Positions 18,001 to 21,000 of a DNA stretch of 64,000 bases are shown one piece after another. Position 1 is the stretch's first letter, and each line of letters begins with the position of its first letter. Source of the DNA: Spirochaetia bacterium (lineage in GTDB: Bacteria; Spirochaetota; Spirochaetia; DSM-2461). A program made the position numbers. The DNA is taken from contig CAXXIA010000002.1 of the NCBI GenBank assembly GCA_963666985.2, positions 1,824,001 through 1,888,000 on the forward strand. Direction: 5' to 3'.

Positions 18001-21000
18001 CGCCTTGGTCGTCAGAATCGATAAATTCCAAGTTACCTGATGAATCTACATTATAGGAGAGTAGGCCACTTTCACCATCTGCCAGATAGATGTAATCTCC
18101 ATCACCCCAAACTTCAACGGCGGTTCCGCCCTTATCATCGGAATCAATAAATTCTAGATTGCCTGACGAATCTACCTTATAGGAGAGAAGGCCAATTGGG
18201 CCATTTGCAAGATAGATGAAGTCTCCATCACCCCAAACTCCATAGCCAATACCGCCTATGTCGTTGGAATCGATGAAGGTTAGATAACCTGATTTCTCGT
18301 TGTCTACATCGGATGATGGATTGCTACATCCTGCAGCGAAAATAATAAGTACCACAGAAAGAATAACATAAAAGATTTTATGTAAGGGTTGTTTCATTAC
18401 CCCCTCCATTAACACAGATTAACCCTTAAGGAAATATAAATATATCTAATTATATATGTTGCAATAACGAACATTAACACACCCCTATGAAATAAAACAA
18501 GAGTATTGTCGATAAGGCCTTTATAGGGATAAAAAACGCGTATACGCCGATGGTCTTCCTAAAGAATTATCATCGCTTTTCATCTATATTATATGGAAAT
18601 CAAGAAGCTTTTAGTTTTAGGGCAAAACGATAAGAGGACGTTCAGATCGGAAACTTCGCCAAACAGCTGTTGATGCGCTCCGAATACATTTGCATGCAAA
18701 TGTATTCTCCGGGGCTTCGCCCAAATTTGCCTCTGTTACAGATTTTGCGAGAGGCTGCGACCGTGGTAAGATGAGTTGCAGTATGCGGATGAGGTTGTGA
18801 AGAATCGCAAAATCTCCGCCAGTCGCTACGCGAACGGCAAACTTCGCATACCAGCGGCCCGTTTAATGAAAAAGCCAGAAGGCATTTCACCGCCTCGGCA
18901 TCCATGCCTCGGCGAGTAGATTGAATTAGGAGTATGAAAACTATGAATGTAAGAGACATTCTCATTGTCAAAAAAGCAAAGAAAATAGAGAACTTCGATC
19001 CTATTGTCCTTGGAACACAGACGCTCACCAATGTGAGCAAAGAACAAACTGATAAGGATGCTAGTTCCCATAACGGATTTGAGTTAGGTACACAAACTAG
19101 AACATTTACTCAAGAAGAAATGACAGACAGTGATACAGACAGAATACAACTTGGTACTCAGACTGTGACGAAACATATGGCTGAGGGTACAGACGAAGAT
19201 CGATGATTCTTCTAGTTACAAATACCGAAGATAAAACAGCTGACTACCTAGAGAGAAATACAAAGAATTCCTTCTTACGTTTCAATACTGAGAAATTTCT
19301 GACAGAGTATAAACTCTCGTATTCGAACAGTGGATTCGAACTACAACATGTCTTATCAGGGAAAATTGTCACAAATCAGAATTTAAAAGGAGTGATCTAT
19401 CGTAGACCAACTTATCCTGACGTGTCAGCTGATGACGGATCCACGAAGCTTCAAGAAGAATTGAGGAATGAAGCTCGAATAATATACGAATCAATACTAG
19501 GTAGTATTGATACAAGATGGATCAGTGAACCATATAGCGTGAGGAAAGCAGAAAATAAACTACTACAACTCAAGTATGCAAGAAATGTAGGTCTTTCAAC
19601 ACCAAAAACAATTGTGTCAAATGATAAAAACCAGGTAGAGGAGTTTTTACGAACGGCAAATTCAAGGTTGTGCATTAAGCCTATGCATCTTGGCATATTC
19701 GAGATAAAAGACGAAATCTACATACCATACAATACAATAATTTCTTATGAAGATATTTCTGCAGTTGATAACTATCCAACCTTGATACAAGAATATGTCG
19801 AAAAACAATATGAAGTTAGGGTGGTTATAATCGGAGAAGCCGTTTTTTCTATCAGAATAGATTCTCAAAAGAATGCTGATACGAAATTTGACTGGAGAAC
19901 AAATAACTGTATGGCTGTTGAATACTCAATTACAGAAATACCTTTTGAAATAGAGAATAAATGTAAGCAGTTAATGAGTGAATTTAATGTAAATTTCGCT
20001 TCAATGGATCTTGCCATCAATGAGAACGGAGAATATGTGTTTCTAGACTTGAACCCTAACGGTCAATGGGCTTGGCTAGACGAATTATTGAATTTAAACA
20101 TGACTAACGCCTTCATCGATTTTTTCGACAAAGGAGATAAATATGTTTGATCCAGTTCATATCTTGGAAGAAAAAAATAATAGCACCCTAAGTCGATATG
20201 AATCATTTTACTCAAAGCAAAATTCCATTTTCACTTTAATGACGCTACTTGTTACGGTTTTTCTTTTTCTTGCCGGCGAACATTTTCCAGCTGTCAATTC
20301 TTTGTTTACAGTTACTGATAACACTTGTTTCGAAATGGTACTAGCCGTATCTATTACAATTACATTTGTTGTTGTACTTATTTTCTTCTTCAATTTGCTA
20401 TTTCAAATTCTCTCCGGACTCAAGCCAATTGTTTTCTCTGAATTGGACTATGAAGCTATCGATGAATTCAACAAAGGCAAAGAAGAGAAGGCATATAAGA
20501 TATTGATAAAAGACATGAAGAATGTGATTGATAGTAACCAGGAGGCAATAAACGAGAAATATAATGTTTTTCTAAAAGTGAAGTCCAATTTTACAATATT
20601 TCTCTTCGTATATATGTTTTTGGTTGTTCTTGTCTTTGTCGCGACTTTTTATGCAGGAATTAATGCTGGCAGCTGACTATCTCATTAGCATCTGAAGCAC
20701 ATCGTGTGCTTCAGATGAATTTATGAAGTTTTTTAGCTGGCTTCGTCATTAAACAGCTGTTGATGCGCTCCGGCGATAATCGGGGATTATCGCCTCCGGG
20801 GCTCCGCCCAAATTTCGTTTTGTCATGGCTCTTGCAGATGCAGTTCCGTAAGTGATGTGATACAGTCAAAGAAGAACATGGTGTTGCTGTAGAAGAGCAA
20901 GAGCACATGCCAACCGGCTTTGCCGGACACGAAACGTTCGCATAACAGCGGGCCGTTAAATGTAATGCCCAATTTGACTTGTAGCAATATATAATAACTT

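Follow-up and report, generated by a model that had tools for sequence, protein, structure and literature searches.

Integron cassettes have mostly been seen as single promoterless genes, a picture lately extended to small defence systems. Can one such cassette also hold a complete RiPP locus? The question is raised by three overlapping genes in the 64,000-nucleotide stretch of DNA that we analysed (hereafter the window), which the genome-wide survey's note had placed, as a graspetide locus, inside one integron cassette at 18862–20955. All elements listed there are present at these coordinates (Table 1). We consider it likely that a thuringinin/plesiocin-style module has been captured whole as one cassette of an integron-like array in an uncultivated member of the Spirochaetales, its predicted product being a protease inhibitor. 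Within the literature searched, no paper reported a RiPP locus in an integron cassette, and the one paper there that has both words, "integron" and "graspetide", concerns another matter, as had been stated before.

Table 1. Features of the graspetide cassette and its flanking attC sites (window positions)
Feature	Position	Strand	Description
attC of preceding cassette	18658–18867	+	R'' 18658–18664; R' GTTTAAT 18861–18867; crossover G|TT, graspetide cassette from T18862
Graspetide cassette	18862–20955	+	2094 nt; bounded by TT of the upstream R' and G of its own R'
5' leader	18862–18942	+	44% GC; array-type motif 18891–18915; AGGAG RBS 18928–18932
Precursor gene	18943–19206	+	87 aa; 22-aa leader MNVRDILIVKKAKKIENFDPIV followed by three core repeats
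Core repeat 1	19009–19059	+	LGTQTLTNVSKEQTDKD; L23–D39
Core repeat 2	19084–19134	+	LGTQTRTFTQEEMTDSD; L48–D64
Core repeat 3	19150–19200	+	LGTQTVTKHMAEGTDED; L70–D86
ATP-grasp graspetide ligase	19203–20150	+	315 aa; start overlaps precursor stop (ATGA)
Membrane protein	20143–20676	+	177 aa; overlaps ligase gene by 8 nt; AGGAG 20132–20136
Hairpin	20689–20717	+	perfect 13 bp, CATCTGAAGCACA-TCG-TGTGCTTCAGATG; TTTTTT 11 nt after
Own attC of graspetide cassette	20748–20961	+	214 nt, 50.5% GC; R'' ATTAAAC 20748–20754; R' GTTAAAT 20955–20961

Cassette borders and attC sites

Both borders lie at G|TT, as had been claimed: the upstream attC ends in CGGCCCG|TTTAATG (G at 18861) and the cassette's own attC in GGGCCG|TTAAATG (G at 20955), the final 6 nt of the latter being part of the next cassette. 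The start of the cassette, GTTTAATGAA, and the reverse complement of its own R'', GTTTAATGAC, agree perfectly over the 7-bp core, giving a G|TT crossover of the kind found in integron cassettes. GTTTAAT at the cassette start is the exact complement of the inverse core ATTAAAC in its own attC, and this complementarity is a signature of G|TT recombination. Across the window, all seven bases after G|TT matched the unit's own inverse core in 22 out of 28 units, and six out of seven did so in 3 more; among non-cognate pairs of start and inverse core, only 26 out of 756 were perfect. The 3 units that failed the cognate comparison are all long, and one contains a degenerate attC that the motif search had missed.

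The precursor and ligase genes overlap by 4 nt, and the ligase and membrane protein genes by 8 nt, an arrangement indicating translational coupling. These overlaps leave no space for an attC inside the three-gene set. The description of the locus as one cassette therefore holds: its genes overlap with no attC between them, and its start complements its own inverse core. Judged by its sequence anatomy, the unit is a true cassette.

The attC motifs are no chance occurrence: the 5' motif was counted 29 times in the window where 0 were expected, and all 29 copies are paired with a 3' motif 197–266 nt downstream. Folding of the bottom strand of the site at 20748–20961 gave −45.6 kcal/mol (z = −5.05), with the arms GCTG/CAGC and ATGCG/CGCAT flanking an asymmetric loop; the site thus has the imperfect inverted boxes ending in GTT and the single-strand fold with an asymmetric loop of a cassette-type 3' attC. 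The consensus fold of the family is branched, with a three-hairpin centre, and shows compensatory changes (covariation) in 19 of its 42 pairs. Classical attC sites measure roughly 57–141 nt; at 200–270 nt, those of this array are unusually long. A scan of 18500–21100 against Rfam gave no match at E ≤ 1.

The stretch is contained, as contigs, in three public runs from one study, none of them RNA. One such contig covers 18828–20819, which confirms the assembly over that part. Four joints connecting 18855–18871 to 20751–20752 were considered as candidates for excision; their sides measured only 23–27 nt, and we took them as artefacts of the attC-family repeats. In a run from a second sample, 20418–20751 was present at depth 2, followed by divergence exactly at the attC start, a coverage too slight to build on.

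The precursor and its core repeats

The precursor reading frame is open from 18934 to 19206 (90 aa). AGGAG at 18928–18932 precedes the ATG at 18943 by 10 nt, and precursors of relatives begin with MN(I/V)xxIL; both observations favour the 87-aa form over the 90-aa form. Each of the three cores reads LGTQTxTxxxxExTDxD (T-x-T-x-T-x4-E-x-T-D-x-D). In an alignment of seven precursors of the subfamily, core 1 positions T25, T27, T29, E34, T36, D37 and D39 were invariant in 7 out of 7, and core 3 positions G71, T74, T76, E81, D84 and D86 were likewise invariant. Core repeat 2 was found in 4 of the 7, the other 3 having two cores only. The 87-aa precursor with three LGTQTxT repeats and acidic residues, previously assigned from its repeat pattern, is thus present, and the Thr, Glu and Asp residues of its first and last cores are conserved in all seven aligned precursors.

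Related precursor reading frames lie upstream of the ligase in 22 out of 80 genome loci (phmmer, E ≤ 0.001), and the pattern TxTxT...E..DxD occurs in small reading frames of 38 out of 80 related loci. No curated Pfam or NCBIfam family matched the precursor. It has the make-up of a graspetide precursor: encoded next to the ligase, it combines a leader with cores in which Thr donors and Asp/Glu acceptors keep a conserved spacing.

The ATP-grasp ligase

The ligase carries the MvdD pre-ATP-grasp domain (PF21068; 29.1 bits, cut-off 27) and matched TIGR04187, TIGR04185 and TIGR04184 at E values of 1e-48 to 1e-57, the match to TIGR04187 (E = 2.7e-57) spanning residues 2–307 of 315. It scored below every curated NCBIfam cut-off. 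Its best solved relatives were MdnB (5ig8, E = 1.8e-31), AMdnB (7m4s), MdnC (5ig9) and CdnC (7mgv), and every one of the 6 matching proteins of solved structure is either a graspetide ligase or has an MvdD-like domain, which places the enzyme among the ATP-grasp ligases of the RiPP-maturase clade. Outside its own small subfamily, its identity to any genome locus was at most 37%.

The enzyme had been described as a macrocyclase of the MvdD type. This is correct in the broad sense given by PF21068; in the strict sense it fails, since the MvdD and MvdC equivalog cut-offs were missed by far (165.3 bits against 475 for TIGR04184, and 166.4 against 425 for TIGR04185) and the gene layout is thuringinin/plesiocin-like, not microviridin-like. 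A complex prediction for the ligase with the membrane protein returned scores of 0.00 and 0.00, which speak neither for nor against binding.

The membrane protein and related loci

The third gene, too, is as described before and encodes a membrane protein. This falls in the family whose genes directly follow those of related ligases. The protein has two N-terminal hydrophobic helices, a soluble loop and a C-terminal helix (3–4 hydrophobic segments in all) and belongs to no Pfam or NCBIfam family. A downstream reading frame with at least two hydrophobic segments was found in 59 of the 65 related loci that have a downstream reading frame. A profile built from 49 co-located proteins scored the membrane protein at 19.1 bits, the best of 500 shuffles reaching 8.2, and the protein aligns over its full length with five subfamily proteins. 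Its nearest clusters in the protein Atlas are unnamed (0.92).

The order precursor, ligase, membrane protein is kept in 6 out of 6 distinct closest loci (ligases 38–47% identical) and, in a looser form, in most of the 80 genome loci. No attC-like or other flanking repeats surround any of the six closest modules (0 out of 6), and the window's attC motif was absent from these six loci and from two further related loci. The cassette itself encodes neither a leader protease nor an ABC exporter. An ATP-grasp maturase of the RiPP type, a conserved multi-core precursor and a family-typical membrane protein together support the earlier assignment of the three genes, at the level of sequence, to a graspetide-type locus.

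A different function for the same genes would be that of an intracellular conflict or defence module, in which the cross-linked peptide, or its cleavage by a phage protease, signals to a membrane-damaging effector in the manner of abortive infection. We regard this as unlikely. The membrane protein has a weak PADLOC match to PycTM (E = 0.0023, 16.8 bits), and PycTM occurs in 10% of the members of one nearest Atlas cluster; however, the match lies within the hydrophobic helices, is unseen with Pfam at E ≤ 1 and could be compositional, and the ligase and precursor match no PADLOC model. Defence-type cassettes are plentiful in the array around the locus, and defence neighbours were found in 3 out of 5 scanned related loci (BglII restriction-modification; GmrSD_N; WYL/WCX with Cas3), although defence-island surroundings are typical of any mobile accessory gene. 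The available part of PMC11626197 proposes that protease-inhibiting RiPPs may in nature protect against phages, whereas the available text of PMC8939145 describes all characterized graspetides as protease inhibitors and free peptides.

The array and its integrase

The cassette belongs to a chromosomal array of 157 kb with roughly 85 cassettes. The 84–85 attC sites all lie on the plus strand and reach contig position 1935714 (CAXXIA010000002.1); the graspetide cassette falls between numbers 37 and 38 of these, with about 65 kb separating it from the integrase end. The integrase gene (contig positions 1777133–1777966, CAXXIA010000002.1, minus strand) diverges from the array. The first crossover, G|TTATAAC, lies 6 nt from the integrase start codon and matches the first cassette's own R'', so that the array stands beside an integrase gene with attI at its start. 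Defence-type cassettes are abundant (SIR2_2, PIN, reverse transcriptase, a DpnII restriction-modification pair, Mrr, NACHT and Fic), and some cassettes carry two or more genes.

An additional IntI-specific domain separates IntI from Xer recombinases. The integrase of this array is 277 aa, an Xer-like length, and its best solved relative is the Vibrio integron integrase VchIntIA (2a3v, E = 7e-46). The alignment spans residues 13–180 and 246–318 of 2a3v; between the two stretches there are 22 residues here and 65 in VchIntIA, so about 43 residues are absent at the site of the integron-integrase-specific insertion, and the IntI-specific domain is missing. Against TIGR02249 the protein matched in two stretches at 220 bits, below the cut-off of 265, and it passed NF040815, "site-specific tyrosine recombinase/integron integrase", with 224.6 against a cut-off of 220. 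Beside the homologue of this short integrase in one relative genome we found 2.3-kb repeats, none of them attC-like.

These features could also mean that the flanking repeats are interspersed repeats of another kind, with the genes merely lying between copies and having no cassette mobility. The recombinase is of Xer-like length and without the IntI insertion, the repeats exceed classical attC sites in length and fold into a branched structure, and no canonical integron integrase was found in the genome (0 out of 8 TIGR02249 matches above cut-off). Such a reading is nevertheless very improbable: the excess of cognate over non-cognate core matches, with the first unit beside the integrase among the matching ones, would be difficult to account for in that case, all 84–85 repeats share one orientation that starts beside the recombinase, and this recombinase both has 2a3v as its best solved relative and passes NF040815. 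Because the integrase lacks the specific insertion and the attC sites are unusually long, the label "integron" needs a caveat, and on sequence grounds we call the array integron-like.

Origin and expression

The GC content is 34.8% in the genes, 50.5% in the attC and 51.7% elsewhere on the contig. Within the genome the gene body occurs only here, and the ligase was found in 0 out of 40 relatives; by composition and distribution, the gene body is foreign. Leader and hairpin motifs, by contrast, recur in other cassettes: the motif at 18891–18915 is common to the 5' ends of four others, and the hairpin belongs to a family located 18–34 nt before the attC in part of the array. A foreign gene body framed by a leader motif, hairpin and attC of the array's own type suggests that the module was probably joined to a pre-existing cassette chassis in this lineage. 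The hairpin may be a terminator; a terminator scan did not call it, as the T-run lies 11 nt off.

Neither the 81-nt leader nor the upstream attC yielded a sigma-70-like promoter. The promoter scan returned six promoter-like sites, against 6.7 expected, none of them upstream of the precursor, and the gene of the preceding cassette lies on the opposite strand. Without an upstream promoter, and at its distance from the integrase end, the cassette may be silent. Taken further, it could be a silent or decaying passenger whose genes are intact by recent capture, with no expression and no peptide in this host. Read-through is unlikely, given the orientation of the preceding gene, the cassette's place at the 37th–38th attC is distal, and its GC and codon make-up are far from the host's. 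We nonetheless think it quite improbable that this is all the cassette is, since the three frames are open and full length and have kept the subfamily-invariant positions and translational coupling. Silent storage is normal for distal cassettes and is compatible with the capture of a whole graspetide module, which remains our preferred reading.

Predicted product and implications

In a captured graspetide module, by analogy with the family, the short N-terminal leader of the 87-aa precursor would dock on the ATP-grasp ligase, which, using ATP, would esterify Thr to Glu/Asp side chains within each core. As there are up to three Thr and three acidic residues per core, two or three macrolactones could form in each, and nested or hairpin-like macrolactones in three cores would yield a trivalent cross-linked peptide. 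The core motif has no Lys, unlike microviridin, so only esters are expected. The available parts of published accounts describe two esters per repeat in thuringinin and three nested esters in OEP6-1; the three Thr and three acidic residues of each core here could form rings in either manner. The membrane protein encoded beside the ligase would most likely export the peptide or anchor its maturation, and the product is most likely a protease inhibitor acting in microbial or phage conflict.

The anatomy of the attC sites predicts that the cassette recombines at their G|TT. That cassettes can move whole peptide loci had been concluded before; a complete locus does lie in one cassette, and its mobility is inferred from anatomy, not observed. 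The observation concerns a single instance, one graspetide cassette. It suggests that such large arrays are able to keep small natural-product loci in store and possibly to move them.

More tentatively, and with considerable doubt, we propose that chromosomal integron-type arrays store and carry complete miniature RiPP pathways in addition to single enzymes and defence genes, that this graspetide subfamily is perhaps one of the conflict or anti-phage cargoes exchanged among them, and that the carrier is perhaps an undescribed lineage of spirochaete integrons. Such a lineage may be marked by a short integrase without the IntI insertion, branched attC sites of 200–270 nt and a conserved hairpin before the attC, and foreign gene sets may slot into a reusable chassis of 5' leader motif, 3' hairpin and attC. 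If it exists, a lineage with these features would be missed by standard integron finders.

A complete pathway of substrate, modifying enzyme and putative exporter in a 2.1-kb cassette would mean that RiPP chemistry could be passed on at a stroke by site-specific cassette exchange, and that large cassette arrays are a mining ground for compact, ready-to-express biosynthetic sets. It would also be a natural parallel to the pathway-in-a-cassette idea of synthetic integrons. The locus also offers enzymology a small, previously unsurveyed graspetide subfamily with a short leader and a trivalent core, and its carrier offers an unusual spirochaete integron type, with short integrase and long attC, for studying cassette genesis.

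Comparison with known systems

Among graspetides, thuringinin represents group 3 and plesiocin group 2. The thuringinin-like group is said to correspond to groups 3/5/6 of Lee et al. 2020. The present locus shares with the thuringinin and plesiocin clusters a single precursor whose tandem cores abound in Thr, Glu and Asp, one ATP-grasp ligase and an adjacent membrane protein of unknown function, with no protease or ABC exporter. It differs in its leader, which has 22 aa here against roughly 55 aa in Bacteroidota relatives, and in its membrane protein, which is shorter (177–188 aa in its subfamily, 200–290 there). The layout of multi-core precursor, single ligase and membrane protein is described in the available parts of PMC8939145 and 10.1101/2021.05.19.444834; the former assigns precursor "cluster 13" and membrane-protein "cluster 18" to the thuringinin-like group and proposes a transport role for an uncharacterized membrane-protein cluster specific to thuringinin loci. 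Our locus has this thuringinin-like layout, in which a tandem multi-core precursor goes with one ligase and an uncharacterized membrane protein encoded alongside, a likeness that refers to layout descriptions only. The 11 text supplementary files of PMC8939145 contain no Treponema or spirochaete entries.

With the microviridin system (MdnA with MdnB/MdnC; MvdC/MvdD), the locus shares the ligase superfamily, including the MvdD pre-ATP-grasp domain, and MdnB (5ig8), AMdnB (7m4s) and MdnC (5ig9) match its ligase at E values of 1e-30 to 1e-31. Where the microviridin system uses two ligases, the locus has one, and it has neither a PFFARFL-type leader nor an acetyltransferase or ABC-peptidase gene. 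The graspetide clusters of Porphyromonas gingivalis are, in the available part of bioRxiv 10.64898/2026.08.04.741601, likewise cargo of a mobile element. There the vehicle is an integrative conjugative element and the cluster belongs to the grasp-with-SPASM type and includes a type I secretion set, whereas here the vehicle is a 2.1-kb cassette with a minimal three-gene set.

The carrier resembles the Vibrio cholerae superintegron and other sedentary chromosomal integrons in its long one-directional array beside a divergent tyrosine recombinase, its homogeneous attC sites with G|TT crossover, its GC content below that of the chromosome, and its toxin, restriction and other defence cassettes, some of them multi-gene. 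Defence cassettes and a two-ORF cassette are also mentioned in the available parts of the integron papers. Unlike those integrons, the array described here has an integrase without the IntI-specific insertion and attC sites of 200–270 nt with a three-hairpin branched centre, and the cargo of its graspetide cassette is a RiPP biosynthetic set.

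The graspetide genes occupy a single cassette

Three overlapping, co-directional ORFs lie on the plus strand between 18862 and 20955, and because the genes overlap there is no attC site between them. The unit starts with GTTTAAT, which is exactly complementary to ATTAAAC, its own inverse core box (R''). The graspetide locus is thus one cassette, bordered at the G|TT crossover points of the flanking attC sites, as the genome-wide survey's note had described it. We favoured the 87-aa form of the precursor because of the spacing of an AGGAG (18928-18932, 10 nt 5' of the ATG) and because the precursors of relatives start at the equivalent Met. 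Its first 22 aa, MNVRDILIVKKAKKIENFDPIV, form the leader, and three cores of the pattern L-G-T-Q-T-x-T-x4-E-x-T-D-x-D come after it. A promoter scan found no promoter-like site 5' of the precursor, and a look for RNA runs containing the stretch yielded none.

Features of the graspetide cassette and the array integrase (window positions, unless prefixed by C2, the window's contig, or L001, the stretch around the integrase)
Feature	Coordinates	Strand	Size	Remarks
Precursor ORF	18934-19206	+	87 aa	ORF 90 aa; 87 aa from the favoured start ATG 18943
Ligase ORF	19203-20150	+	315 aa	Start in ATGA overlap with precursor stop
Membrane protein ORF	20143-20676	+	177 aa	8-nt overlap with ligase; own AGGAG
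Hairpin	20689-20717		13 bp	Perfect; 3' of membrane protein gene
Cassette's own attC	20748-20961		214 nt	3' of hairpin
Array integrase	C2:1777133-1777966 (L001 1204-2037)	minus	277 aa	47 kb upstream of window

The window contains 29 copies of the attC 5' motif, where 0 were expected, and each has a partner 3' motif 197-266 nt further downstream that ends in GTT. Genome-wide, 84-85 attC copies make up one array on a single strand, from C2:1779213 to C2:1935714 (157 kb). Site length ranges over 200-270 nt, with two size classes of about 205 and about 263 nt. Folding the bottom strands of 21 sites from the ~205-nt class gave a consensus structure in which a two-part outer stem leads through an asymmetric internal loop to a branched centre of three inner hairpins; compensatory changes occur in 19 of its 42 pairs.

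Recombination at G|TT predicts that the bases after a unit's first G are the complement of its own inverse core. Of 28 units, 22 agreed at all 7 bases and three more at 6 of 7. By comparison, 26 of 756 non-cognate pairs agreed perfectly. The three failing units were all long, and inside one of them, 2924-8174, the motif search had overlooked a degenerate shorter attC at ~6945-7073 (about 130 nt, ...GGGCCG|TTAAATGAC); this site divides the unit into two cassettes, the second of which opens on bases complementary to its own R''. At the first unit of the array, the starting G|TTATAAC lies 6 nt from the start codon of the integrase, and this unit has the R'' TTATAAC.

The ligase and its partners

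The ligase matched the MvdD pre-ATP-grasp domain of Pfam (29.1 bits, cut-off 27) as well as the glutathione-synthetase ATP-grasp domain. Over its full length it matched the NCBIfam ribosomal peptide maturase models TIGR04187 (E 2.7e-57), MvdC (8e-49) and MvdD (2e-48), scoring under the curated cut-off of each. Its closest solved structures are the graspetide ligases MdnB, AMdnB, MdnC and CdnC (E 1e-28 to 1e-31), with a weak match to PsnB. By its family and structure matches, with every NCBIfam score below its cut-off, the enzyme is a RiPP ATP-grasp maturase that is the equivalog of no named one. The earlier label of an "MvdD type" macrocyclase therefore stands for the pre-ATP-grasp domain and fails at the level of the MvdD model.

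A database search returned 330 relatives of the ligase, 17 of which form a tight subfamily at 41-47% identity. We compared six distinct subfamily loci at the DNA level: L009 (from a Treponema MAG), L089, L090 (= L091), L092, L101 and L102. Each of the six has an ORF of 77-94 aa before the ligase, carrying the same core two or three times, and a membrane protein of 182-188 aa after it, which in L009 is cut by the contig end. Alignment of seven precursors showed no variation at the Thr, Glu and Asp positions of the first and last cores, and an N-terminal leader, Mxxx(D/E)(I/L), is common to them. This recurrence of gene order and cores bears out the proposal that the small ORF is a precursor with three L-G-T-Q-T-x-T cores.

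The comparison extended to 80 genome loci at greater distance: 38 of them have a small ORF showing the pattern TxTxT...E..DxD, and at 22 phmmer linked an upstream ORF to the window's precursor (E <= 0.001). An ORF of at least 100 aa starts at the ligase's end in 65 of the 80, and 59 of these 65 have at least two hydrophobic segments, usually in the order helix, helix, loop, helix. Against a profile of 49 of these downstream proteins, the window's membrane protein scored 19.1 bits, compared with 8.2 for the best of 500 shuffles. Conservation in the close and the distant loci shows both neighbours of the ligase to be its genuine partners.

An integron-like array with a short recombinase

At the head of the array lies a divergently transcribed tyrosine recombinase of 277 aa, closest among solved structures to the Vibrio integron integrase 2a3v (E 7e-46, aligned in two stretches). 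At the site of the insertion that sets IntI apart it has 22 residues against 65 in 2a3v, so this insertion is missing. The recombinase falls short of TIGR02249 (220 bits vs 265) and narrowly clears NF040815, "site-specific tyrosine recombinase/integron integrase" (224.6 bits vs 220). By its DNA anatomy the system behaves like an integron, yet one defining protein feature is missing; the survey's term "integron" holds for the attC and crossover anatomy and for an array beside a recombinase, but not for the IntI-specific insertion or the TIGR02249 match.

About 20 proteins in the databases, 273-290 aa in length, share 60-73% identity with the recombinase, and homologues occur in 11 of 40 relatives. 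In region L179 (G033:C2:550500-570499), at 9521-19511, of G033, a relative of the same class but another family, a short-integrase homologue (41% identical, one in-frame TAG) adjoins eight attC-like repeats (..TAACGTTCCGCGAATAT..); the repeats are spaced 433-5539 nt apart, seven gaps being 433-1374 nt. The G033 region suggests that this short-integrase array type is widespread in the class. By the length range of attC sites in classical integrons, those found here are about twice as long. Default integron finders cap attC length, and an array with 200-270-nt sites may escape them.

Origin of the cassette

GC content was 34.8% in the gene body, 50.5% in the cassette's attC, 40.1% in the whole array and 51.7% in the rest of the contig. 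The ligase is single-copy in the window's own genome, and a search of 40 relatives, of which 13 belong to the genus, 11 to the family and 16 to the class, did not find it. Ribosomal protein L2 placed the host in the Spirochaetales, and the closest named module is in a low-GC Treponema MAG.

Both ends of the cassette are of the type found elsewhere in the array. At 18891-18915 the leader has a 25-nt motif made of two copies of GCCTCGGC flanking ATCCAT; four other cassettes carry it ~30 nt from their 5' end (C2:1902392, 1794880, 1864197 and 1875322; at least five cassettes in all). Hairpins at least as strong as -12 kcal/mol occur within 111 nt before attC in 12/84 cassettes vs 1/84 control windows. 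Members of the hairpin family, such as 20689-20717 and 6879-6907, are perfect over 12-13 bp, lie 18-34 nt before attC, covary in their stems, share the apex ..AC(A/G)TC(C/G)(T)GT.. and often have a T-rich tail. The one at 6879-6907 faces the plus strand while the genes of its cassette are on the minus strand, so the hairpin is apparently part of the cassette's attC side and not of the genes. Since leader motif and hairpin family recur in other cassettes and the gene body is foreign, the foreign genes were probably joined to an existing cassette chassis.

At the six related modules we found neither the window's attC motif nor any flanking repeat. Their neighbours include a BglII restriction-modification pair, a GmrSD-type gene, WYL/WCX with Cas3, a phage replication protein and housekeeping genes. 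These mixed surroundings suggest that the graspetide module moves in variable regions generally and was caught here in a cassette. Among the public runs, which come from one study, run X3 is from a second sample; in it, two 151-nt contigs of depth 2 match 20418-20751 exactly (membrane gene end and spacer) and diverge at 20751, where attC begins; this could reflect the same module in another context, or noise.

Array neighbours and possible role

Defence-type cargo, several times as two genes, fills the cassettes 37960-40157, 12487-14793, 2924-7070, 27833-31889, 31890-35319, 51290-52533 and 60648-62104. It comprises a D12 methyltransferase with a DpnII-type endonuclease, an unknown protein with a reverse transcriptase, a SIR2_2 protein with a dual-specificity phosphatase, a subtilase with an AAA ATPase, a NACHT NTPase, Mrr and Fic. 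Because the surrounding array is full of such cassettes, a role of the graspetide in phage or microbial conflict is plausible. A minority reading makes the graspetide genes themselves a direct defence mechanism. Its sole basis is a match of the membrane protein (residues 71-167) to the PADLOC PycTM effector, which is annotated in 10% of the members of one nearest Atlas cluster; the match is weak (E 0.0023) and may be compositional.

Insertion sequences lie within cassettes (14880-16070, 41354-42544 and 62191-63381; also 23246-25257, 54289-56458 and 57580-59686) and account for several oversized units. A 397-aa rve-family transposase gene is present in three identical copies (1191/1191 nt), alongside an IS21-type pair and IS3/IS481-like genes. 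Cassettes 8674-9905 and 36728-37959 are identical duplicates (1232/1232 nt), and the 499-nt cassettes 8175-8673 and 9906-10404, with no ORF of at least 60 aa, agree at 480/499 positions. The preceding cassette encodes, at 17411-18415 on the minus strand, a 334-aa lipoprotein-like protein with about eight 38-aa repeats (..GDGDFIYLAN..GLLSY.VDSSGNLEFIDSDD..) and weak beta-propeller/LVIVD matches; a 302-aa relative is encoded at 57580-58485.

Comparison with known graspetide clusters

In the part of the matching open-access papers that we covered, we found no report of a RiPP locus in an integron cassette. The one paper found to pair "integron" with "graspetide" (bioRxiv 10.64898/2026.08.04.741601) concerns another matter, as the survey had noted: its graspetide clusters are carried by conjugative elements. 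The words RiPP, biosynthetic, bacteriocin and peptide are all absent from a large cassette-recovery preprint.

The layout described for thuringinin and plesiocin, a multi-core precursor, a ligase and a membrane protein, is the same as here. A graspetide paper (PMC8939145) assigns the multi-core precursors of groups 3, 5 and 6 to "cluster 13", regards a family of membrane proteins restricted to thuringinin loci as a probable transporter and describes characterized graspetides as protease inhibitors. By analogy, the product of this cassette would most likely be a trivalent, ester-cross-linked protease inhibitor.
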